This document shows, in pieces, positions 3,325 through 59,823 of a DNA stretch of 64,000 bases (positions are counted from its first letter, which is position 1; each line of letters opens with the position of its first letter). The position numbers and the translations under genes were made by a program. This DNA is from a virus: positions 1 to 64,000 of the IMG/VR virus record IMGVR_UViG_3300044683_000172. The stretch is one strand, 5' to 3'. The notes beneath the pieces were generated by a model, which worked only from the letters and a program-made list of their open reading frames with translations, was not told where the DNA came from and searched no databases.

Positions 3325-3762
3325 TTACGCCCCGATGATTGTGAAGTCACAAGTGTCGCCACTCGTCCCGCTGCTCATGCCGTAAAGATCATTCAGCGGA
3401 CCAAATGGAAGCGTTAGTGATTCCCCGGCAGAGATGCTGAAATCCACTGCCCCAACAGGCTTATTGAATGACAAATACAGCGTGTGATTTTGACTGTCAA
3501 CATTCTTGATCGTCAACGAGTTCTTGTAGGTTCCTCCTGCCGCAACAAGATCACGGCCACTCGTGCCGACCTTCATCGGCTCATTGATCACGATCCCGTT
3601 GTTGCTGATGCCGGTCTGAGGGTTTCCAGGAGCGGCGCCCGACTCGGGTGCACCAAGCGATACCGGCTTGCCCGTCTTCGGGTCGAGAACGAATGTTCCT
3701 ATGGCGGCATATTCGCCGCCACCGCCCTTGATAGGGGTTGGGTCGCCAGGCTTAAAGTACAT
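3325..3762 (-). CDS. hypothetical protein
   Basis: 145-aa ORF with ATG, 3 nt downstream of the portal stop. No recognisable motif. Confidence 0.6.
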   Translation of the reverse strand: MYFKPGDPTPIKGGGGEYAAIGTFVLDPKTGKPVSLGAPESGAAPGNPQTGISNNGIVINEPMKVGTSGRDLVAAGGTYKNSLTIKNVDSQNHTLYLSFNKPVGAVDFSISAGESLTLPFGPLNDLYGMSSGTSGDTCDFTIIGA

Positions 3763-3765
3763 GTC

Positions 3766-6300
3766 TTATCCTTGATTATTGGATTCACCGTCCGCCATGT
3801 GCGGATTAACATCAGATTCTCGCCAGAATTCGTTTGTGTATGGGCCGCAGTGAGCTTTCTTTGAGTTCAACCAAGCCTTGAAGTCGTCCATCGACAACTC
3901 ATGAATGGAATCAAATCCGTCCCAACCTTCCGAGTAGGATTGGTCATATGCTTCTTTTGCTTCTTCGCGGCTGTCGAACCCGAGCATGCACTTGTGCTCG
4001 TCAAACTCGCCGTCTTTGCTGTTTTGATTGACGATGAACGCCTTTTGGGACTTCATGTTGGGTCCGACAAAGCAATCCATCTCATCGCCATCGGCGCCTT
4101 CGAATCCCTTGATGAAGCCATAGTGGTGCGGCATATTCACGCTCCACTCATCACCGTCCAGGGTGACGCCGCGACGAGTTGTCCCGCGCGGATTTTCGAT
4201 TGCCAGCGTCATGCCGTGAAGCTTGATCTTTGGAAGCTTCCAAGGCGCTTGCTCGGTCGCCACGGACAACGGCCCATGCGTCGATGCTCGGACGGACGAT
4301 GCGACGCCCGGCTTAACCGCGCGGTCTCGGCCGGGGACTTCGCCCGCTCGAATGTCCACACCTTCCGGACGAATCTCATCACTCAGACGCTCAATAACGT
4401 CCGTCATCCGACCCAGGATGTCCATGATTGCAGGCGATACGCCAGCAGCGGCCGGATCAAGCATCGTAGTTTGTTCTTGTTGTGCGCGCTTTTGTGCGGG
4501 CTCTTGGACTTCCGGAACGGCCGCGACCTTTGGAGGGACCTCGGTGGCCTCTGCGCTTTCGTTTGCGCCCATTCCAATCTTGCTGCCCTTGTTGACTTCT
4601 TCCTGGCGCGCACCTGCCGTCACGAGGGATGCCTTCGACTTCTCCTGTTGCGCGCCGGCCTTCTCCAACTCTGCCAGAACATCCGGCGACATGCCCGGCT
4701 CCGAATTCCCATCGTCGTTGCCCAGTCGGTTGTATCCGCTGTACTTGTCGTCCCGAATTCGATTGCGCTCCTCGTCCGGAGACAGCGCGCCGGATTCGAC
4801 CAAGGCAACGCCGGTTTGAGCCTTCGTCAAGTTCAGCTCAGCGCGTTGCTTGGCCGTCATCGAGTCAACAGGCTCCCAAACGTGCTGGATTTTCACCGTC
4901 AGCCCAAGCGACTTCTCCAGCAGCATGTAGTGCCGATCAAGGAGCGGCGACATGTCGTGCTTTTGAATCGATTCAAGTTCTTCGTGATAGTTGATCGTCT
5001 CAAACTCACCAGTAGAATTGAATCCCTTCGGGGACGTTCCCAGAAGCTTCGTTGCAGGAACCTTGCCAATCGCGGATACCAGCTGATACTGGTTCATGAT
5101 GACGGCGTCGAAGTCGGCCAGAGACGTGTCGAATTGCTCCATCGTCTCTTCTTTTCCCAAGACCTTCACTGCGTGATTGTCTCGGTACTTGACCCAGAAC
5201 TTGAGCTTGGCAATGAACTTGTCTTCGTTCAGAATTGCCTTTTCGGTATCGACGTGGATTGCCGTCGTTCGTTTGTTCGTAGCAAGCAGCGGCGCCTCAT
5301 TTGCCGTACGTTCGGCGGCATAGACGCGCTCATAGATGCGCTGGGTCAGCGGGATGCCGCCGAAAATGTACGTCGGCTTCAGAATGTCTGCCGGTTCCGG
5401 ACCGCGAACGATGATGAGGTGGCTTCGGTGATATTTCTTCCCGCTGATGATCCAGTATTCCGGTTCATAGAAGTGGATGGAGGAAGGATCGGCCGTTGCT
5501 TCAGCCGTCAGCATCGGCATCATCCAATACGGATCAACCTGTGAAATGCCCTTGTAGGAGCCCTTAGTAACGCCATCGATGTTGAATGGCTTCTCGTAAT
5601 AACGTTCATCGTCACTTTCCACCTCAAAGATGGCGACGCGGATGCCGAAGATGTTCTTGAATCGAACCAACTGTTTCAGGTTTTCCACCAACCTGAACTT
5701 GAGATCATAGCGCTCCAGCTCATCACGGGTTGCATCGTCCAACTCTTCATCTTCGCTGACCGCCTTGAGTGTCCAGCCGTTCCTCACGGCATCTTCCCCG
5801 GGCATAGAGCACGCCTTGTCCACAAGCCAATGCTGTGCGATAAGAGCGCACGCCTGATATCCGATGAACGACTGGGAAAGATACCAGTTCATCAGCTGCT
5901 CAGGGACTGCATACGGAGTTTGCATTGTTCCGGCCATGCTGGGATCGCACGTGCCGCAGGAATCATCCATTGCGTAAGTCTTCGCAATGGGCACGGCAGA
6001 GTCCATGACCAGGGAAGTGCCTGAGATCGTCTCCACTTTTGAATGGCTCTCATCTTCCAACTCGGCCATGGGGAATGAATCGACCCCTCGCAGAGTGAGG
6101 ATTCGCTCGCCGTCGGTTACGGTCCAACCTTCTTGGCGCCTGACGCGCTCCATCGGGTCCAACGGATCGGTGATCGGGACAAATTCCTGTTTGGCCTCGG
6201 GCGCGCGAGCCTTTCTTTTGCGACCAAACAGTCCGGTGATCTTATTGAGCATGGTGGATTCCGATGGGTGTACGCGCTCAGCCCGTAAGTTCACAGGCAT
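3766..6300 (-). CDS. portal protein (DUF1073-type) with C-terminal inorganic-pyrophosphatase-like domain
   Basis: 844 aa. The central region contains VPATKLLGTSPKGFNSTGE, typical of DUF1073 portals. A low-complexity linker follows. The last 150 aa contain HHYGFIKG...DGDEMDC, matching the family I PPase signature. Confidence 0.85.
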   Translation of the reverse strand: MPVNLRAERVHPSESTMLNKITGLFGRKRKARAPEAKQEFVPITDPLDPMERVRRQEGWTVTDGERILTLRGVDSFPMAELEDESHSKVETISGTSLVMDSAVPIAKTYAMDDSCGTCDPSMAGTMQTPYAVPEQLMNWYLSQSFIGYQACALIAQHWLVDKACSMPGEDAVRNGWTLKAVSEDEELDDATRDELERYDLKFRLVENLKQLVRFKNIFGIRVAIFEVESDDERYYEKPFNIDGVTKGSYKGISQVDPYWMMPMLTAEATADPSSIHFYEPEYWIISGKKYHRSHLIIVRGPEPADILKPTYIFGGIPLTQRIYERVYAAERTANEAPLLATNKRTTAIHVDTEKAILNEDKFIAKLKFWVKYRDNHAVKVLGKEETMEQFDTSLADFDAVIMNQYQLVSAIGKVPATKLLGTSPKGFNSTGEFETINYHEELESIQKHDMSPLLDRHYMLLEKSLGLTVKIQHVWEPVDSMTAKQRAELNLTKAQTGVALVESGALSPDEERNRIRDDKYSGYNRLGNDDGNSEPGMSPDVLAELEKAGAQQEKSKASLVTAGARQEEVNKGSKIGMGANESAEATEVPPKVAAVPEVQEPAQKRAQQEQTTMLDPAAAGVSPAIMDILGRMTDVIERLSDEIRPEGVDIRAGEVPGRDRAVKPGVASSVRASTHGPLSVATEQAPWKLPKIKLHGMTLAIENPRGTTRRGVTLDGDEWSVNMPHHYGFIKGFEGADGDEMDCFVGPNMKSQKAFIVNQNSKDGEFDEHKCMLGFDSREEAKEAYDQSYSEGWDGFDSIHELSMDDFKAWLNSKKAHCGPYTNEFWRESDVNPHMADGESNNQG

Positions 6301-18419: not shown

Positions 18420-18782
18420 ATGGAATACATGGCAAAACGCAAGCCGGAAGAGTTCCGGCCCATCGATGTGACGTTCCGCATCCAGTCGCAAGCGGAGTTG
18501 GACAACTTACAGCGATTCCTAGCGTTTGATGGTACGGTGCCGTCCGCTGTGCGCGAATACGATGTGACGACTGGGGATGATGCTGCTCTGCGCATCCACA
18601 ATAAACGGCACGGCGGACGGCATTCGTCTGACTACGCCGTCTTCGAATACGATGATGATCTGGCTGGGTTCGTTTTTCGATTCATGGGCGGTCTGCGCAA
18701 TGCAGTGGTGGGTGCATTGGTCGATGATTGCGAACAGAACGGAGCGAGTGCCCAAATCGACGGTGCCGGCTTGCTGAAGTGA
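18420..18782 (+). CDS. hypothetical protein
   Basis: Internal ATG (MEYMAKRKPEEF...) with AAGGAGAAG SD. Last gene before the 1.07-kb non-coding gap. Confidence 0.5.
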   Translation: MEYMAKRKPEEFRPIDVTFRIQSQAELDNLQRFLAFDGTVPSAVREYDVTTGDDAALRIHNKRHGGRHSSDYAVFEYDDDLAGFVFRFMGGLRNAVVGALVDDCEQNGASAQIDGAGLLK

Positions 18783-18785
18783 ACG

Positions 18786-18814
18786 TTGATTCGTTCATCT
18801 GCGCCAACTAAGAT
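18786..18814 (+). promoter_or_regulatory. candidate sigma70 promoter TTGATT-N17-TAAGAT for the non-coding unit
   Basis: Hexamers at 18786-18791 and 18809-18814, 4 nt after the upstream stop codon. Confidence 0.4.
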
Positions 18815-18820
18815 TCGTCC

Positions 18821-19605
18821 TGTGCTGCGTTGATACCGGAGTTTGCCGCGCGACGGCTTTGAAGGTGAACCAAACGGCACGGCGCTTGTAGACCGCTTAA
18901 AGTCTACAGCCATTTATGGGCGAGTCCTTTATTGGACATCACTTGGAGACATCTAAGTGCCCATAAATGGCGGTCCCGGAAAAACGTATAGTCTGCTGCG
19001 TAGGCGTGCGCTGGTGGACGGCAGTACGGCCGTACGGGATCGCCAACCAGTTCCCAGCGTGGAGCGAACGATAACAGACCGAAAGGCGTCTATGCGCTTC
19101 TGGCGCGGTCTCAAGTCTGGTGCGCTTCATAGGCGAGGGTAGCGATGGCAGGCCGCGAGATAGTCTCCCCGTTTGGCGTCTTACGCACTTTGTGAGTGGC
19201 GCCCTTCGGTGTTCGTCTTTGAGGCGCCTTGCAGTGGCGTAACCCATTCCTCAAGGATGAACACCGAAGTCCTGTACGTCTCAGTGGTAGAGCGCGGTGC
19301 GGTATCCAATCCGTGCTGTGTGTCGTCGGTTCGATTCCGATCATGGACTTCAGCAAGCATATTCCGCTCAATCCCAGAACATCGACGGCGTGCGAGCAGG
19401 TGGCCTAGTCAGCCGCCACAACTGTTTCTCGCGGAAGCGCGTCTAAGGGGTTTGAACTACCGGACGCGGCAGAGAATCGACATGGGAAACCGCCTGAACC
19501 TGTCGGACAAGCCGGTACGTCCCGAGTGGCCGCGGTGAACGGTCAAGCAGCCGGTGAACTCACCCGAAGCCCGCGACACGTTGTGAAACGCTCGCGGGCT
19601 TCGTC
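18821..19605 (+). ncRNA. candidate large (~0.8 kb) structured non-coding RNA, class unknown
   Basis: No credible ORF on either strand. 13-bp helix 18909-18921/18959-18971. 21-bp helix 19204-19224/19248-19268 with two G-U pairs valid only for plus-strand RNA. Further helices, an embedded tRNA-like module and a terminator at the 3' end. Confidence 0.45.
19266..19351 (+). ncRNA. tRNA-like element (non-canonical cloverleaf; possibly a degenerate tRNA)
   Basis: T arm GTCGG-TTCGATT-CCGAT, D loop AGTGGTA flanked by CTC/GAG. Acceptor-like stem GAAGTCCTG/CA(T)GGACTTC. 7-bp anticodon-like stem with 8-nt loop TATCCAAT. No encoded CCA. Confidence 0.5.
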
Positions 19606-19610
19606 ATTTC
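19566..19610 (+). terminator. rho-independent-like terminator closing the non-coding unit
   Basis: GAAGCCCGCGA (19566-19576) pairs with TCGCGGGCTTC (19592-19602), followed by GTCATTTC. Confidence 0.5.
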
Positions 19611-19854
19611 TACGCCAGAAACAATCCCATCGTGAGGCGAGCGTATCGACCAAGAAAATGGCGTTCAAATTCGCGTAATACCCATTACGTTAAATTGCCG
19701 TTCGCTTATCGCACGCCAGAATAGCCTCATTGTTTGAGGTTGCGAAACAATCTCTCATCTCACTTCGGCCCTCAACCATTTGGATGAGTTGCCAATGTGC
19801 ATCTCGTCAGGCATGATTGAGTCACCTAAACGAATCTCATACGGAGATACCGAA

Positions 19855-20370
19855 ATGCGCTACTTCAAGATCGACGGCCACTTCAACGTTGTTGCAATCG
19901 CCGAGTCGATGGACGAAGTCAAGGCCGATCTGGACAACGGCGGCCAATGGGCATTCAGCTGGCAAGGTCAGAAGATGGAGATTCGCAATCTGAAGCCGGA
20001 AGGTGGATGGATGTGCCGTAACGACATCGAATCTTGGGAAGAAGCCCAGGCCATCGCAAGTGCGGCAAACGCCTTCTGCGGATCGCCGGATGCCTGGATT
20101 GCCACCGACGCCGGTGAATGGGTCAGCCCGCGCTACGATGTGATCGAAGCGCCTAAAGTCGGTCAGTTCGTCTCGAAGGGCTTCAATGGCGATTACTACC
20201 CGCTGGGCACGATTACGAAGATCAGCCACGACTTCAAGCGCGTTACGGTCGAAAATGAGAACGGCACCAAATACGTCTTCTATCGCAAGAAGATGAGCGG
20301 TGTTTGGTTGCTGAATCGTATGTGGGGACTGGTATGCGGTAGCGTCAACGAGCGCAACCCGCATCTCTAA
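19855..20370 (+). CDS. hypothetical protein
   Basis: Internal ATG (MRYFKIDGHFNV...) with GGAGA SD, in ORF 19780..20370. Confidence 0.6.
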   Translation: MRYFKIDGHFNVVAIAESMDEVKADLDNGGQWAFSWQGQKMEIRNLKPEGGWMCRNDIESWEEAQAIASAANAFCGSPDAWIATDAGEWVSPRYDVIEAPKVGQFVSKGFNGDYYPLGTITKISHDFKRVTVENENGTKYVFYRKKMSGVWLLNRMWGLVCGSVNERNPHL

Positions 20371-21063: not shown

Positions 21064-21198
21064 GATTTTGGTGATGCCGCGTGTTCGGTTGATGCTCGCG
21101 ATTGTATGTGAACGTGTTCGTCAGAGATAGGAGGTGCTTTGGCTGTCTGTTTTGTGTTAGTTGGGATGCTGTGTACGTGCCGATTGTGGTAGTGCTTG

Positions 21199-21501
21199 GG
21201 TTTGCCGCCCGATAAATCAGAACCACTTGCCTTAATTGTCGGACGGTTTGCCGCGCCCAACTATTGGTCGTTCATTGCAACGCCGCGCGGGCATTGGGTT
21301 TGCCGCGAGTCTGTTTCTTCTTAGTTGTATTAATTGTAATAGTTGTATAAGAAAGAAATACGTATAGGCCCGTACATGTACGATCCCGTAAGAGTCTGAC
21401 GACCCACCCAATTATCCAACTTTCGCAACTATTGGACCTAAGTCCTTGATTCGAAAGAAGAAAGATAGTTGGGCGCGGCACAACTATTAGTTGCAACTAT
21501 C
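21199..21501. repeat. iteron cluster with AT-rich core (candidate origin of replication or pac/regulatory region)
   Basis: GGTTTGCCGC at 21199, 21245 and 21297. CAACTAT(T/C) in both orientations at 21258, 21338(-), 21426, 21464(-), 21481 and 21494. Palindromes CGTACATGTACG (21371) and TAGTTGCAACTA (21488). AT-rich 21313-21362. Confidence 0.6.
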
Positions 21502-21552
21502 TCGCGGCAAGTGTCCGCCACAACAATACATACCGCATCGCGAAACGCACAA

Positions 21553-21578
21553 CAACCAAGAAAAGCGCCCGAAGGCGC
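21553..21578 (-). terminator. rho-independent terminator after the helicase gene
   Basis: Minus strand reads GCGCC-TTCG-GGCGC followed by TTTTCTTGG, 10 nt after the stop at 21588. Confidence 0.7.
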
Positions 21579-21587
21579 ATTCTTCAC

Positions 21588-26872: not shown

Positions 26873-27010
26873 ATGATCAAAAGAAATGGCACATCGATCA
26901 TCTTTGCTTTCTTCGCGCTGATGTCGATCTTTGGTGGTGAAAAGGGCGCTGCGCTCGCATTCTTCTTCTTTTGCGGATTGACTTTGGATTTGAAGAGAGG
27001 GTGTGAGTGA
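26873..27010 (+). CDS. small membrane protein (45 aa)
   Basis: ATG at 26873 after GGAG. MIKRNGTSIIFAFFALMSIFGGEKGAALAFFFFCGL. Confidence 0.4.
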   Translation: MIKRNGTSIIFAFFALMSIFGGEKGAALAFFFFCGLTLDLKRGCE

Positions 27011-27852
27011 AACGAGAAGAGAATGAAATGTTGGACCAAATCAAATTCACTTCCGAGCACGAATTGCCTGTGCAATCCCTAAAGAGATCAGGGATTTACC
27101 GCATCGTATCGCCAAGCGGAAATTTCTATGTAGGAAGTGCTGTTGAAATTCGAAAACGATGGCGCAATCACAAGCGTCAACTTATCTCTGGCGTTCACCA
27201 CAACAAACCGCTGCAAGCTGCTGCCAAAAAGTACGGTTTGGAAAGCCTGCGATTCGAGATCATCGAGCACTGCGATTCTGATGTGCTCATTAACAGGGAA
27301 CAGTTTTACATCGACGCGCTGCGCCCTAAGTACAACACGTGTTTGGTGGCCGGAAGCCCACGCGGCGTGAAGCGTTCCGAAGAGACGAAGGCGAAGGTGC
27401 GCGCCGCGAATGTCGGCAGGAAGCACTCCGAAGAGACGAAGGCAAAACTGAGTGCCGCGAAGATCGGTAAGAGGCTTTCTGAGGACCACAAAGCGAAGTT
27501 GAGCGCGGCACGAATCGGCAAGATCGGCAAGAAGCATTCCGAAGAGACAAAGGCGAAGATGAGTGCGGCACACACCGGTAAGAAGTTTTCTGAGGAGCAC
27601 AAGGCGAAGATGAGCGCCGCGAATATCGGCAAGAAGCATTCCGAAGAGGCAAAGGCAAAAATGAGCGCGACACGAACCGGTAAGAGGCTTTCTGAGGAGC
27701 ACAAGGCAAATATGAGCGCCGCGCTTACCGGCAGGAAGCTTTCTGAGGAGCACAAGGCGAAGCTGCGCGCAGCGCGTCTGGCCTATTTGTCAAGGCGCAA
27801 CGGCGAGATTGGCACTTCGCTCGGATTTTCTTTCCCTGCTGATTCACTTTGA
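27007..27852 (+). CDS. free-standing GIY-YIG homing endonuclease with eight NUMOD3 repeats
   Basis: GIYRIVSPSGNFYVGSAVEIRKRWRNH (GIY-YIG), then 8 tandem SEE(T/H)KAK(L/M)SAAxxGKK units. GTG at 27007 or ATG at 27028. Confidence 0.9.
   Translation: MKREENEMLDQIKFTSEHELPVQSLKRSGIYRIVSPSGNFYVGSAVEIRKRWRNHKRQLISGVHHNKPLQAAAKKYGLESLRFEIIEHCDSDVLINREQFYIDALRPKYNTCLVAGSPRGVKRSEETKAKVRAANVGRKHSEETKAKLSAAKIGKRLSEDHKAKLSAARIGKIGKKHSEETKAKMSAAHTGKKFSEEHKAKMSAANIGKKHSEEAKAKMSATRTGKRLSEEHKANMSAALTGRKLSEEHKAKLRAARLAYLSRRNGEIGTSLGFSFPADSL
27376..27792 (+). repeat. 51-nt tandem coding repeats (NUMOD3 units)
   Basis: Eight 17-aa units (one of 20 aa) inside the endonuclease gene. These generate the spurious antisense ORFs 27088..27755. 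Confidence 0.85.
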
Positions 27853-36500: not shown

Positions 36501-39349
36501 ATCTACCACAACTGCGAGTCCGCACCGGCTATTCTTTCCGCAATGCCTATGGGAGAATGGAAGAAGTCTTCGCGCGACTGAAAGAAATCGAATCTCCGTC
36601 AGCCGCTATCGTTGACTGGGGCACATGGGGGCATGTACGTTTCGAGAAGGAAGCGAAAAAGACCGGCATTAAGCCTATGTTTGGGATGGAAGTTCCGATC
36701 ATCCAAACCATGGAAGACGGCGAGAAATCTAAGTTCAAACCTGTCGCATGGATGCTGGCTGCCGATACGCGCGCCTTCTATCGCGGAACGACGAAGGCCT
36801 GGGCCGAACGAGGGTTGTCGCCGGCCGAGTTCGCAGCGCTGCCCGGTGTCGTACGCTTCGCGGGCGCAGCATCCCGGGTCTTGACCCCAGACCAGTACGA
36901 TTTCATCGACGTCAACCCGGCATCGATTTCCGAAGCGGCACGAGGCGTGTGGATCGCGCGCGAAACTGGCAAGCCTCTGGTCATCACCTGTTACAACGAC
37001 ATGCCGAAGCCGGATCACATGGACTTCGCGTATGCGTGGGAAGTTCGGGATTCGGTCGGCCATCGCTTCTTGGACGGCATCGATGAGCTTTGGAAGCGAC
37101 TTCAGCGCGTGATGTCGTGGAGCGAATTCCAAGCCGCAATCGACAACACCGTGGAAATTGCCGACAAGCTTGCTGGCAAGGAACTGCCCAAGGCACCTCT
37201 GATTCACCTGGAAGGCGATCTGGTTGCCCTGATCCGAGAAGGGCAGCAATCGCGCTTGCAGCGAGGTCACATCGCGGAATGGACCCAGGAATATGAGGAT
37301 CGTGTTCAAGAAGAGATCAAGCAAATTCAGCTGAAGAACTTCGACAGCTACTTTCTTGTTGTTGCTGATCTCGTCCGATTTGCAAAACAGCACATGCTGG
37401 TCGGACCCGCTCGCGGCTCGGCGGCAGGTTCATTGGTCTGCTATCTTCTCGGCATCACAGAAGTCGATCCTATTCCCCACGACCTTCTGTTCCAGCGGTT
37501 CATCGACATCAGCCGCGCTGACCTTCCGGATATCGACATCGACTTTGCCGACAACAAGCGTCATATGGTGTTCACGTACTTGCAAGAAAAGTACGGAACG
37601 CAGAACGTCGCCAAGCTTGGGAATATCAACACGCTGAAGGCCAACTCTGTGATGGCGCAAGTCGGCAAGCGTTTCGGCATTTCTTTCGGCGAAACTTCCC
37701 AAGTCAAAAATGCGCTCATTGAATACTCTTCTGGCGATGCTCGATACGGAAAAGGTTTGGAAGATACCTTCTCCACCACCGGACCCGGACAGGAATTCAC
37801 CCAGAAGCATCCGGACGCCGCGCGATGCATGGGCGACCTCGAAATCCATCCAAGTCATACAGGCGTACACGCTGCGGGCATCCTCGTCTGTAATGATCCA
37901 ATCAGCGATTACTGCACGGTCACCGAAGAAGGCGTGGCACAAATCGATAAGCCGGATTCTGAGTATCTGAACCTGCTGAAGATCGACGCGCTTGGCTTGC
38001 GTACTCTGGGCATCATCGATGATACGGGCGTCGTCACGGCCGAAGAACTCTACAGTCTGCGACTTGACGATCCCGCCGTGTTCGAAATCCTCAATGAGGA
38101 CAAGGTGAGTGGCATCTTCCAGTTTGAAGGGGATGCCGTTCGATCTGTGACGCGCTCTGTTAACGTGGATCGGTTCTCGAAAATCGACAACTTGACAGCT
38201 CTGGCGCGGCCCGGCCCGCTCGCGTCCGGTATGGCCCAAAAGTACATCGCCCGCGCCAACGGATCGGAGCCTGTTACGTACGATGTTCCGCAGCTGGAGA
38301 AGTACCTAAAGGACACGTACGGCGTTTTCCTTTACCAAGAGCAGATCATGTCCGTGGTGAAGGAAATTGGCTTGTTCGACTGGGTGAAGACTTCTGCTGT
38401 CCGAAAGGCCATGTCTGGTCGAAAGGGCGAAGAATACTTCAACCAGATGGGTGCCGACTTTGTTGCAGGCGCGACTTCGCAAGGAGTGCCGGAAGATCAG
38501 GCCAAGAAGATTTGGAACGAGATGGTGACGTTCGGCTCTTGGGGCTTCAATAAATCGCACTCGGTCTCATATGCCGTCGTGACGTATTGGACTTGCTGGC
38601 TCAAGCGTTATCATCCACTGGAGTTTGCCGCAGCCTGTCTGCGCGCGGCGAAAGACGATGATCAAGTAATCGCAATTCTTCGAGAATTGGCCAAGGAAGG
38701 AATCCATTACACGCCAATCGATCCGTCGTTCAGCGATATGAATTGGAAGGTGGCCGATGGCCGACTGATCGGCGGCATCATGAATGCCAAGGGTTTTGGA
38801 CCGGCCAAGGCGATGAAGTACATCCAGGATCGCGAGAAATGGAAGAGGCTTCGCGACTTGGGGCCGCTGACGAAGAAGGATACGGCGCTGTACCTGAAGC
38901 ACGTCGAATCGCTCGCCAAGGCTGAGGTCCAATACTCCGACTTGAATGAAGCGCACACCAAGTGGGGCCACTTCTATCGGAACCCGGAACTGGCCGGCGT
39001 TACGTCCGGCAACCCTATCGTCAACATGAAGTCGGTGAAGGACAAAGACGATGGTCTGATCATCGCCAAGCTGACCAAGAAGGTTTTGGCCGACGAGAAC
39101 GAAGCCATTCGGATCAAAAAGCGCGGCGGGAAAGTCATGACCGGCCAGACGCAGTTCATCGACTTGATGATGGTGGACGATTCCGCCGACTCGCCGATGC
39201 GTTTCCGTATCCGCCCTAACAAGTTCCTTGACCTAGGCAAGCCCATCGCGGAAACCGCTCCGATCAATTCTTGGTTTCTGATCAAAGCATGGAAGATCGA
39301 AGGAATTGATATGTTCATCGTTAAGAACATAAAGAGGATCGACCAATGA
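36497..39349 (+). CDS. dnaE: DNA polymerase III alpha subunit (DnaE-type replicative polymerase)
   Basis: 950 aa. GPARGSAAGSLVCYLLGITEVDP, PDIDIDF, and fingers/beta-binding region FNKSHSVSYA. The N-terminal PHP motif is degenerate (LRVRTGYS). Confidence 0.95.
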   Translation: MNLPQLRVRTGYSFRNAYGRMEEVFARLKEIESPSAAIVDWGTWGHVRFEKEAKKTGIKPMFGMEVPIIQTMEDGEKSKFKPVAWMLAADTRAFYRGTTKAWAERGLSPAEFAALPGVVRFAGAASRVLTPDQYDFIDVNPASISEAARGVWIARETGKPLVITCYNDMPKPDHMDFAYAWEVRDSVGHRFLDGIDELWKRLQRVMSWSEFQAAIDNTVEIADKLAGKELPKAPLIHLEGDLVALIREGQQSRLQRGHIAEWTQEYEDRVQEEIKQIQLKNFDSYFLVVADLVRFAKQHMLVGPARGSAAGSLVCYLLGITEVDPIPHDLLFQRFIDISRADLPDIDIDFADNKRHMVFTYLQEKYGTQNVAKLGNINTLKANSVMAQVGKRFGISFGETSQVKNALIEYSSGDARYGKGLEDTFSTTGPGQEFTQKHPDAARCMGDLEIHPSHTGVHAAGILVCNDPISDYCTVTEEGVAQIDKPDSEYLNLLKIDALGLRTLGIIDDTGVVTAEELYSLRLDDPAVFEILNEDKVSGIFQFEGDAVRSVTRSVNVDRFSKIDNLTALARPGPLASGMAQKYIARANGSEPVTYDVPQLEKYLKDTYGVFLYQEQIMSVVKEIGLFDWVKTSAVRKAMSGRKGEEYFNQMGADFVAGATSQGVPEDQAKKIWNEMVTFGSWGFNKSHSVSYAVVTYWTCWLKRYHPLEFAAACLRAAKDDDQVIAILRELAKEGIHYTPIDPSFSDMNWKVADGRLIGGIMNAKGFGPAKAMKYIQDREKWKRLRDLGPLTKKDTALYLKHVESLAKAEVQYSDLNEAHTKWGHFYRNPELAGVTSGNPIVNMKSVKDKDDGLIIAKLTKKVLADENEAIRIKKRGGKVMTGQTQFIDLMMVDDSADSPMRFRIRPNKFLDLGKPIAETAPINSWFLIKAWKIEGIDMFIVKNIKRIDQ

Positions 39350-58466: not shown

Positions 58467-58676
58467 TTACTTGGCCGTCGTCGTCTTGGCGTCGGACGGC
58501 TTGGCTTGCTCGGCCTTCTTGGTGGCAGGCGCTTGCTCCGACTCGCCGTTGGCCGAGCTTGCGTCTTCGGAGGCTTGCTTTGCCGAGTCGGCCTTGACGT
58601 CTTGGTTGGGCGTGAAGGTGTTGTCGCCGGTCGCGTGATCGATGCGGAGAACGCCGTTGCTGAATTGGATGGTCAT
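58467..58676 (-). CDS. hypothetical protein
   Basis: 69 aa with a Lys/Ala/Ser-rich tail. Confidence 0.5.
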   Translation of the reverse strand: MTIQFSNGVLRIDHATGDNTFTPNQDVKADSAKQASEDASSANGESEQAPATKKAEQAKPSDAKTTTAK

Positions 58677-59029
58677 GATTGGTTGCTCACAGTCAATTGG
58701 CCGTAGATCGTTAGGATTTGGGCCGTGAAAAAGAAACCATCGCCACGGATATCAATGCTGAGTGACTCAACGCTCAAAACGTCAGGCACGCTCAGTATCG
58801 CATCCGTCAGCGACTTCCGCGCGGCGTCCACATCTCTATGTGCCGTGAAGATGGTTCCGAGGTAATCGACACCATTTAGCACGTTGTAGATGTCTTCAGT
58901 TGTGCGCATCAAAGTCTTATGCAGCACGTTCTGGGCGCACGCCGCAGCGCCGGTGATGATTGCCAGGTTCCGTCCGTCGGGCAAGAACAGATCATTGTTG
59001 GAGTCAGTCTGGATGGTCGCTGTGGCCAT
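58673..59029 (-). CDS. hypothetical tail-module protein
   Basis: 118-aa ORF with overlapping start/stop couplings. Confidence 0.6.
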   Translation of the reverse strand: MATATIQTDSNNDLFLPDGRNLAIITGAAACAQNVLHKTLMRTTEDIYNVLNGVDYLGTIFTAHRDVDAARKSLTDAILSVPDVLSVESLSIDIRGDGFFFTAQILTIYGQLTVSNQS

Positions 59030-59358
59030 TACACACTTCCTCGCTTCAACATCGCTGAATATGCCGCGAATTCGGTCTTGTTCAAATACATCAGCGAAAC
59101 TGCTTGGTCAAAGTTGGTCCAGTCAGGTTCGCCATCAAAAACGAAGTTCCCGAAATCCGGAGCGTACATATAACTGTACGGCATCAGAGGTTCGCCGCTT
59201 ACGCAGCGAATGCCCCGGATTATGTCCTGGCCATTTCGTCGGATATCAGCGCACATATGCGTGATCGCCTGGAAGATTCGAACTTGCCAGAAGGCGCCGT
59301 CAACGTTGAAGGAGACGGCTTGGTTCGGGATCGCGGCCAGCGGAACCTGATACATCAC
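59029..59358 (-). CDS. hypothetical tail-module protein
   Basis: 109-aa ORF adjacent to the tube gene. Confidence 0.6.
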   Translation of the reverse strand: MMYQVPLAAIPNQAVSFNVDGAFWQVRIFQAITHMCADIRRNGQDIIRGIRCVSGEPLMPYSYMYAPDFGNFVFDGEPDWTNFDQAVSLMYLNKTEFAAYSAMLKRGSV

Positions 59359-59823
59359 TTACGCCTGTTGCGCGTTCGGGTTGGTGCGCGAGATGTTTTC
59401 AAAACGGAAGCGGTATGCATTCGTTTTGAACCGACCCGAGCTTGCAACTCGATTGATGAACGGACCGGTGACGACGGCGCCGGAGTTCAGGTTTGCGATT
59501 TCACCCGTCGGATAGTTGATCGTCATGTCAACCACGTCACGAGCGCCGCGCTTCTTGAAACCGACGCGGTTCGCTTCCACAAGCGCTTTCAGGTTCACGT
59601 CCGCGTCGCTGTTCGGAATCACCGCGATGGTGATTTCCAGACCTTGCGGCCGCGACCAGATGACCATGTTGCCGTTGAGACCAAAGGCGGTGTCTGCCAG
59701 GTCCAGGTCCGGGCTGTCCAGCGGGTCGGCGTCGTCAGCGAATTCGGTGATGGAGAAGCCGGTCGGGAAGCTGTTGGAGGCCACCAGGCTCGCGCTCAAG
59801 CCGTAGCCGGAAATGTTTTGCAT
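59359..59823 (-). CDS. tail tube protein
   Basis: 154 aa directly downstream of the sheath gene. MQNISGYGLSASLVASNSFPTGFSITEFADDADP (DUF3277-like pattern). Confidence 0.7.
   Translation of the reverse strand: MQNISGYGLSASLVASNSFPTGFSITEFADDADPLDSPDLDLADTAFGLNGNMVIWSRPQGLEITIAVIPNSDADVNLKALVEANRVGFKKRGARDVVDMTINYPTGEIANLNSGAVVTGPFINRVASSGRFKTNAYRFRFENISRTNPNAQQA

Follow-up and report, generated by a model that had tools for sequence, protein, structure and literature searches.

A tRNA-derived element, probably a degenerate tRNA gene, in a non-coding gap of a PB1-like myophage genome

Introduction

Pseudo-tRNAs and sub-threshold tRNA-like sequences are known from phage genomes. In other systems, RNase P/Z processing can be signalled by tRNA-like folds, and a role against tRNA-targeting defences has been proposed for phage tRNAs. 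In YrlA modules the acceptor end is closed, the anticodon end opens into a Ro-binding stem, and rsr is adjacent. Selenocysteine tRNA (tRNA-Sec) is defined by a UCA anticodon, a long variable arm and a 13-bp acceptor/T stack (PMC7609411), and allo-tRNAs (8/4 or 9/3) have a 12-bp acceptor/T branch with a longer acceptor and a shorter T stem, together with a long variable arm (Mukai et al. 2017, PMC5389517; PMC7609411). A natural 8-nt anticodon loop is found in yeast mitochondrial tRNA-Thr(UAG) (PMC7609411). Here we analyzed 64,000 nucleotides of viral DNA (positions 1 to 64,000 of IMG/VR record IMGVR_UViG_3300044683_000172; hereafter, the window), in which a tRNA-like element lies within a ~1 kb non-coding gap of a PB1-like myophage genome.

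An earlier reading of the sequence alone (hereafter, the first-pass annotation) had presented this element as a non-canonical module and offered four explanations, i.e., a decoy or mimic of the Y-RNA/YrlA kind, an expanded-loop decoding tRNA, a processing handle for the surrounding RNA, and a decayed tRNA-Trp gene. The last of these was favoured when insertions and deletions (indels) were mapped against phage tRNA-Trp(CCA) genes. We consider the element to be a degenerate tRNA gene (pseudo-tRNA), with a probability of roughly 0.6, and a fresh instance of the pseudo-tRNAs and tRNA-like sequences already described from phages.

Results

The element carries a tRNA signature missed by standard detectors

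A computed check of the first-pass annotation found all 26 listed base pairs in place, together with the loops, the 7-nt variable region and the AGCA that lies 3' of the element. Nine pairs form the acceptor (19266-19274 with 19342-19351, T19344 bulged), five the D stem (19277-78 and 19280-82 with 19290-94, T19279 bulged) and seven the anticodon-like stem (19296-19302 with 19311-19317), three of the latter being G-U. The T arm is canonical, as is the way it joins the acceptor, and the conserved tertiary bases are all kept (T19275 as U8, A19283, G19286-87, G19329, TTC 19330-32, A19334 and C19337). A tryptophan anticodon, CCA at 19306-08, lies between T19305 (U33) and A19309 (purine 37). The canonical 7/5/7 dimensions are not preserved, given the unpaired T19344 in the acceptor, an anticodon stem of 6-7 bp and a loop of 8 nt, and G73 is also missing, the discriminator being U19349 in the model alignment described below or A19352 in the first-pass fold. 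The combined D-loop and T-loop pattern AGTGGTAGAG-N(25-50)-GGTTCGANTCC had one match in the window, and 100 dinucleotide-preserving shuffles produced none, and thus the tRNA signature is not due to chance; GGTTCGANTCC by itself also had a single exact match in the window.

Standard detectors nevertheless failed to report the element. At default settings ARAGORN called no tRNA gene in the window, so there is no other tRNA either, and when relaxed to 80% of its threshold (-ps80) it returned only a poor 'tRNA-Ile' at 19278-19349 that ignored the D loop. Rfam gave no match at its gathering thresholds. In a relaxed scan of 1 kb the general tRNA model (RF00005) did not match the element, and only tRNA-Sec was retrieved (15.6 bits against a gathering score of 47, E=5.9), aligned end to end. 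That alignment, and the longer than canonical acceptor, D and anticodon stems of the group (PMC7609411), would be expected of a tRNA-Sec, selC-like or allo-tRNA long-stemmed molecule, but we find such an assignment hardly credible: apart from the low score, the element has no long variable arm and no UCA anticodon, its D loop is 7 nt rather than 4, its acceptor/T stack would be 9/5 and not 8/5, 9/4, 8/4 or 9/3, and ordinary tRNA-Trp and tRNA-Gly models fit it better (34 and 32 bits).

Phage tRNA-Trp and tRNA-Gly genes are the closest counterparts

Scanning IMG/VR for the three loop motifs of the element, with the stems unconstrained, yielded 97 matches, of which ARAGORN called 60 as tRNA-Trp(CCA) and 34 as tRNA-Gly(UCC). 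The motif spacing was canonical (47-49 nt) in all 97, versus 56 nt in the element. Covariance models of phage tRNA-Trp(CCA) and tRNA-Gly(UCC) matched the element with 34.3 and 31.9 bits, respectively (E~1e-7), as the sole significant match in the 64 kb; both were built from tRNAs picked for sharing its loop motifs, so the loop part of these scores is circular, and the independent evidence comes from the stems, spacing and ends. On the tRNA-Trp model the members themselves reached 80-88 bits, the majority of other genuine class I tRNAs fell between 45 and 70, and even an unrelated tRNA-Val (63.8 bits) ranked above the element. A model made from the element itself matched a genuine tRNA-Val in a related phage (L012) with 26.5 bits, with deletions exactly at the extra bases of the element.

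Local alignment to phage tRNAs likewise gave a score of 65 for the element versus a maximum of 34 for shuffled queries. The best-aligning sequences were three canonical phage tRNA-Trp(CCA) genes (L053, L061 and L098), in which the blocks CTCAGTGGTAGAGCG, GCGGT, TCCAA and GTCGGTTCGATTCCG are identical to those of the element. When a 95-nt segment containing the element was compared with the phage collection using blastn, only generic tRNA similarity was detected, the best being to a Vibrio phage tRNA-Gly (75.8% over 66 nt).

The irregular features correspond to small indels

The structure-aware alignments place the tRNA-like span, which is real, three bases inside its first-pass start and one base beyond its first-pass end (Table 1), and show an ordinary acceptor whose 5' strand is one base short, and an enlarged anticodon arm. 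The D stem has two bases more than in phage tRNAs (GU at 19278-19279), and four more follow it. The 9-bp bulged acceptor that had been taken to break the cloverleaf does exist as a set of pairs, but is better described as a normal 7-position acceptor with a 5' base missing, extended by three leader pairs (GAA with U73-U74-C75); T19344 is without a partner because the 5' strand GTCC-TG (19269-19274) is one base short. The 7-bp anticodon stem is also present, and is accounted for by the tandemly duplicated strand GCGGTGCGGT, which pairs by G-U wobble with the TG-rich sequence inserted in 19311-19324. This insert supplies the G-U pairs of the lengthened stem, two of which are new, with a probability that we estimate at ~0.14 of arising by chance. 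The 8-nt loop, again present as first reported, consists of a normal loop AUCCAAU, also found in another canonical phage tRNA-Trp (L047; 7-nt loop ATCCAAT), preceded by T31 (T19303), a former stem base that is now unpaired since its partner has been lost. Nearly all compared phage tRNA-Trp genes have G73 and most encode CCA; the element has neither.

Taken from a canonical phage tRNA, the path to the element would have involved the loss of one base from the 5' acceptor strand, the gain of two bases in the D stem, a tandem duplication of 4-5 bases in the anticodon stem, the gain of ~6 TG-rich bases distributed over the 3' half of the anticodon arm and the variable region, and the loss of the partner of base 31, giving the 8-nt loop. 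U would have replaced the G73 of the compared phage tRNA-Trp, and UCA the encoded CCA. On these alignments the odd features map one-to-one onto small, apparently slippage-type indels, and the insertions, i.e., the tandem repeat GCGGTGCGGT and the TG run, look mutational; a distinct non-canonical module or an expanded-loop decoder was not supported. The ancestor was most likely a Trp(CCA)-type class I tRNA, with Gly(UCC) nearly as good a match. The element thus combines clear tRNA homology with a sub-threshold score and stem indels, and none was found in relatives, as is typical of pseudo-tRNAs.

Table 1 Coordinates of the element, its parts and the surrounding features in the window.
Feature	Position	Strand	Remarks
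tRNA-derived element	19269-19352	+	Ends set by phage tRNA-Trp/tRNA-Gly covariance models
Model-aligned landmarks			G19269 is position 1; C19348 is position 72; U19349 is the discriminator; UCA 19350-19352 replaces CCA
First-pass delimitation, 9-bp acceptor-like stem with T19344 bulged	19266-19351	+	From pair check; the tRNA-Sec alignment spans the same
Outer acceptor pairs			G19266-C19351, A19267-T19350 and A19268-T19349 join the 5' leader with positions 73-75
D arm	19277-19294	+	Stem CG(T)CTC/GAGCG and canonical D loop AGTGGTA (A14, G18 and G19 kept)
Anticodon-stem 5' strand, GCGGTGCGGT	19294-19303	+	GCGGT of the closest phage tRNA-Trp, tandemly duplicated (compared with GAGCG-GCGGT-CTCCAAA of L053)
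8-nt loop, TATCCAAT	19303-19310	+	T19305 is U33; CCA 19306-19308 is the Trp anticodon; A19309 is A37
Anticodon-stem 3' strand and variable region, CCGTGCTGTGTGTC	19311-19324	+	TG-rich, ~6 bases inserted
T arm	19325-19341	+	GTCGG-TTCGATT-CCGAT; canonical T loop (T54, T55, C56, A58, G53-C61)
Acceptor 3' side	19342-19348	+	T19344 unpaired; from covariance-model alignments
Strong hairpin directly upstream	19204-19269	+	21-nt arms, 90% complementary; overlaps GAAG of the first-pass acceptor stem and competes with the acceptor in the predicted fold
ORF-poor gap holding the element	18783-19779	+	~1 kb; codon-usage score negative in six frames

A decoding function is very unlikely

The loop retains U33-CCA-A37, and the window has no other tRNA by ARAGORN, so a working tRNA of unusual build has to be weighed, which would read the Trp codon UGG or, through its 8-nt loop, a quadruplet or frameshift site. 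In bacteria G73 is an identity element for TrpRS, and a lengthened anticodon arm and a bulged acceptor would disturb the anticodon-to-acceptor geometry needed for decoding. The element has U or A as its discriminator, versus G73 in the compared phage tRNA-Trp genes; its CCA is not encoded, its anticodon stem has 6-7 bp where 5 would be normal, and its acceptor contains a bulged base. It also falls short of genuine class I tRNAs in score (34 versus 45-88 bits), was passed over by ARAGORN and Rfam, and is not conserved. Natural tRNAs with 8-nt anticodon loops and longer acceptor stems do exist (PMC7609411), but given these differences we regard a decoding role as very unlikely. The long anticodon arm, the bulged acceptor and the absent identity elements would rather have left the element unfit for aminoacylation and decoding.

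No counterpart was detected in related phages or cellular genomes

To place the element we retrieved related loci via the flanking 196-aa ORF (from IMG/VR and JGI metagenomes), the helicase and a 193-aa ORF; the closest phages fetched share 57-65% helicase identity. The element was not detected in any of these loci using ARAGORN, blastn, nhmmer with the gap, or a covariance model derived from the element, and no phage-borne tRNA genes were found in the loci scanned. The 900-nt gap had no blastn match in 50,697 phage genomes. The nearest relative for which DNA was available (L025) has, at the analogous position, a gap of ~1 kb, which showed no significant similarity to the gap of the window (best blastn E=0.34) and no tRNA-like match; a collinear similarity near 19470-19610 that had been judged by eye in this comparison was dropped, being without statistical support. 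Inside the analogous gap, at ~3373-3486 (- strand) of L025, is a 37-aa ORF with two CxxC pairs (VEDSGYEECICCGEMEYDSCEDICYACGYQEEPDEAE), for which a gene was called in just one assembly.

An independent Logan assembly (L029) is 100% identical to the window over 8.6 kb. It rules out an assembly artefact, and it offers no variation in which covariation could be sought. Two weak T-arm-like matches were judged to be chance, one in L004 inside a 588-aa ORF and the other at 36570-36612 (- strand) of the window, which matched phage tRNA models at ~10 bits (E~1) inside the Pol III alpha gene.

The relatives also bear on a further explanation, that the element is an attP remnant or recombination scar derived from a host tRNA gene, whose integration module has since been lost. 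A temperate relative (L012/L013, 57% helicase identity) has an integrase abutting a host tRNA-Val at a topologically equivalent genome place. In these contigs a tyrosine integrase gene (L012 12098-13462; L013 4587-5905) lies directly beside tRNA-Val(CAC) at the contig end, indicating that the otherwise lytic-looking PB1-like group includes integrating members. The element, however, has both halves of a tRNA and not the 3' part alone, and beyond general tRNA features it is unrelated to the tRNA-Val of L012. Its 3' half had no exact match, as a 24-mer or as the 21-mer GGTTCGATTCCGATCATGGAC, in IMG/VR or in a set of 185,579 species with one genome each, and the combination of its D arm, TCCAA and T arm was found in no cellular tRNA of these species genomes. 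A tblastn search of the gap revealed no integrase remnant. The att-site or recombination-remnant scenario, which the first-pass annotation had named as a way in which its module could fail, was thus not found; it is largely refuted, and we hold it to be highly improbable.

Genomic context and predicted folding

The window represents a PB1-like (Pbunavirus-related) myophage encoding a portal-pyrophosphatase fusion, large terminase, RepB-type primase, VapE-type helicase, Pol III alpha, SNF2 helicase and lytic transglycosylase. Its primase shares ~60% identity with the primases of PB1 and related phages, and its host is probably a proteobacterium. The genes flanking the gap (18258/18420-18782 and 19780/19855-20370) are on the + strand, as is the element. 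No gene was called within the gap in the independent Logan assembly, none of its small ORFs was protein-like, and six of them had no significant PHROG match; neither a sigma-70-like promoter nor an intrinsic terminator was found to bracket the element.

The gap, which is part of the early-gene operon, contains strong hairpins at 18906-18974, 19204-19269 (21-nt arms) and 19565-19603, the last with 12 perfect pairs followed by TCATTTCT and therefore terminator-like, and windowed folding of its + strand gave z-scores down to -4.8. On these folding predictions the gap may represent an uncharacterised phage non-coding RNA region. Folded in isolation, the 86-mer had a z-score of -2.4. The first-pass cloverleaf was calculated at -25.9 kcal/mol versus -31.4 kcal/mol for the minimum free energy (MFE) fold, in which the acceptor and T arm are retained and the anticodon hairpin grows to 13 pairs at the cost of the D stem. 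In a 281-nt context the upstream hairpin (19204-19269) was predicted to take the first four acceptor bases. Twelve nucleotides where the upstream ORF ends (18769-18780) are perfectly complementary to a distant segment (19347-19358) in the 3' acceptor strand and trailer of the element (GCTTGCTGAAGT / ACTTCAGCAAGC); for this region we roughly estimate the chance of such a match at 0.04-0.1.

This setting is where a functional but non-decoding RNA would have to act, either as a handle at which RNase P and 3' enzymes process an early polycistronic RNA, or as a decoy or mimic titrating a host tRNA-binding factor, e.g., an anticodon nuclease aimed at tRNA-Trp. The intact elbow and acceptor/T minihelix, stems without mismatch and strand-specific G-U pairs are consistent with such a role, as are the co-orientation of the element with the flanking early genes in a long, hairpin-rich non-coding region, and a PNKP-like protein encoded by the phage, which matches weakly and below the Pfam cutoff. 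Pfam scans of 10 small early ORFs gave nothing tying the region to tRNA biology or defence. We nonetheless consider a functional RNA unlikely. The absence of a homologue in related phages or IMG/VR means that there is no evidence of selection, the duplication and its G-U wobble with the TG-rich sequence account for the extra pairs (chance of two ~0.14), the upstream hairpin is predicted to occupy the 5' acceptor bases in context, and the element is not bracketed by a promoter or terminator.

A more specific version, in which the lineage has kept a stretched tRNA mimic that is cut out of an early transcript by RNase P and then serves as a decoy for a tRNA-Trp anticodon nuclease or other tRNA-binding defence factor, or else as a punctuation signal for the stability of the downstream early mRNA, seems to us distinctly doubtful. 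In such a molecule the long stems and 8-nt loop would bar translation, and recognition of the elbow and acceptor would be kept. Were the element processed and stable, it would count among the rare candidates for phage tRNA mimics or for RNA punctuation signals in a DNA phage.

Several neighbouring features were recorded. The gene directly downstream of the gap (19780-20370, + strand) belongs to phrog_9742, of unknown function, and its closest database relatives (35-54% identity) come from T4-like Aeromonas and Vibrio jumbo phages rather than from PB1-like phages, which suggests horizontal acquisition. Co-transfer of the element with this neighbouring 196-aa gene from tRNA-rich T4-like phages was considered and rejected, as the homologues there are not beside tRNA genes. 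A second ORF-free gap of 0.5-1 kb separates the VapE helicase region from a conserved ORF of ~190 aa (window 21064-21587; L014 7376-8001; L017 1542-2164; L012 9812-10503; PB1 record 58540-59511); it occupies the same position in all relatives examined, PB1 included, and may be a conserved regulatory or origin region. At 27007-27852 (+ strand), surrounded by replication genes, is a homing endonuclease gene with GIY-YIG and NUMOD3 domains (Pfam E=8e-28 and 1.5e-10), and the portal protein gene at 3766-6300 (- strand) has a C-terminal inorganic pyrophosphatase domain fused to it (PF06381 and PF18823).

Discussion

We favour a degenerate tRNA gene because the irregular features of the element can be assigned to small indels relative to canonical phage tRNAs, and several observations weigh against this choice. 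The universal tertiary-contact bases (U8, A14, G18, G19, T54, T55, C56, A58 and G53-C61) are all kept, and none of the 26 proposed pairs is mismatched, which is more order than random decay usually leaves. Because of four G-U pairs the fold is confined to the + strand, on which the flanking genes also lie. Useless DNA of ~1 kb would rarely persist in a compact genome of the lytic type, and there are further strongly structured hairpins in the gap. Non-conservation was shown only against phages with no more than 65% helicase identity, and the scores of the tRNA-Trp and tRNA-Gly models are partly circular.

Some residual activity is compatible with a degenerate tRNA gene. With its acceptor/T minihelix and elbow intact, and with the early genes on either side running in its direction, the element may still be a substrate for RNase P or 3' processing enzymes in a polycistronic transcript; if so, an incidental processing site would be its only activity.

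As a pseudo-tRNA the element matters little in itself. It would imply that a Trp(CCA)-type tRNA gene entered this PB1-like lineage at some time in the past. It also provides a caution for genome scans, as a tandem duplication together with G-U wobble can yield long, well-paired odd stems, and slippage-type duplications can make a fold look deliberately non-canonical.

Comparison with known systems

The resemblance to YrlA and bacterial Y RNAs is a general one, both being tRNA-like with D-loop and T-loop features and neither an ordinary tRNA. The acceptor of the element is open and its anticodon arm closed, i.e., it has ordinary tRNA topology, unlike YrlA. Rfam Y-RNA families gave no match at E<=10 in the 1 kb region, where only tRNA-Sec had been retrieved, and no Ro/TROVE protein was found among the annotated ORFs scanned (part of all ORFs); the proposed YrlA/Y-RNA mimicry was not supported. 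The yeast mitochondrial tRNA-Thr(UAG) shares the 8-nt anticodon loop, but it is otherwise canonical, conserved and demonstrably charged, whereas the loop of the element is accompanied by other indels and shows no conservation.

Long-stemmed tRNAs differ in other ways. In contrast to tRNA-Sec (RF01852), the element has a CCA anticodon, a variable region of 7 nt and a stack of 9+5 = 14 bp instead of 13 bp, and it differs from the allo-tRNAs in its 5-bp T stem and the lack of a long variable arm.

Phage tRNA-Gly(UCC) genes (from a Vibrio phage, L087 and L080) are closer, with the CCGAT T-stem strand in L080, the GTCGG strand in L087, and U73. A UCC anticodon in the element would, however, set A at position 33, its acceptor lacks the initial GCG/CGC shared by all compared tRNA-Gly genes, and the same indels are needed as against tRNA-Trp. 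Compared with phage tRNA-Trp(CCA) genes (L053, L061, L098 and L047), the element is ~10 nt longer between the D loop and the T loop, and differs in its duplicated stem strand, TG-rich insertions, missing 5' acceptor base, U73 and UCA; it has in common with them the D-arm block CTCAGTGGTAGAGCG, GCGGT, U33-CCA-A37 and the T-arm block GTCGGTTCGATTCCG, arranged in cloverleaf order.

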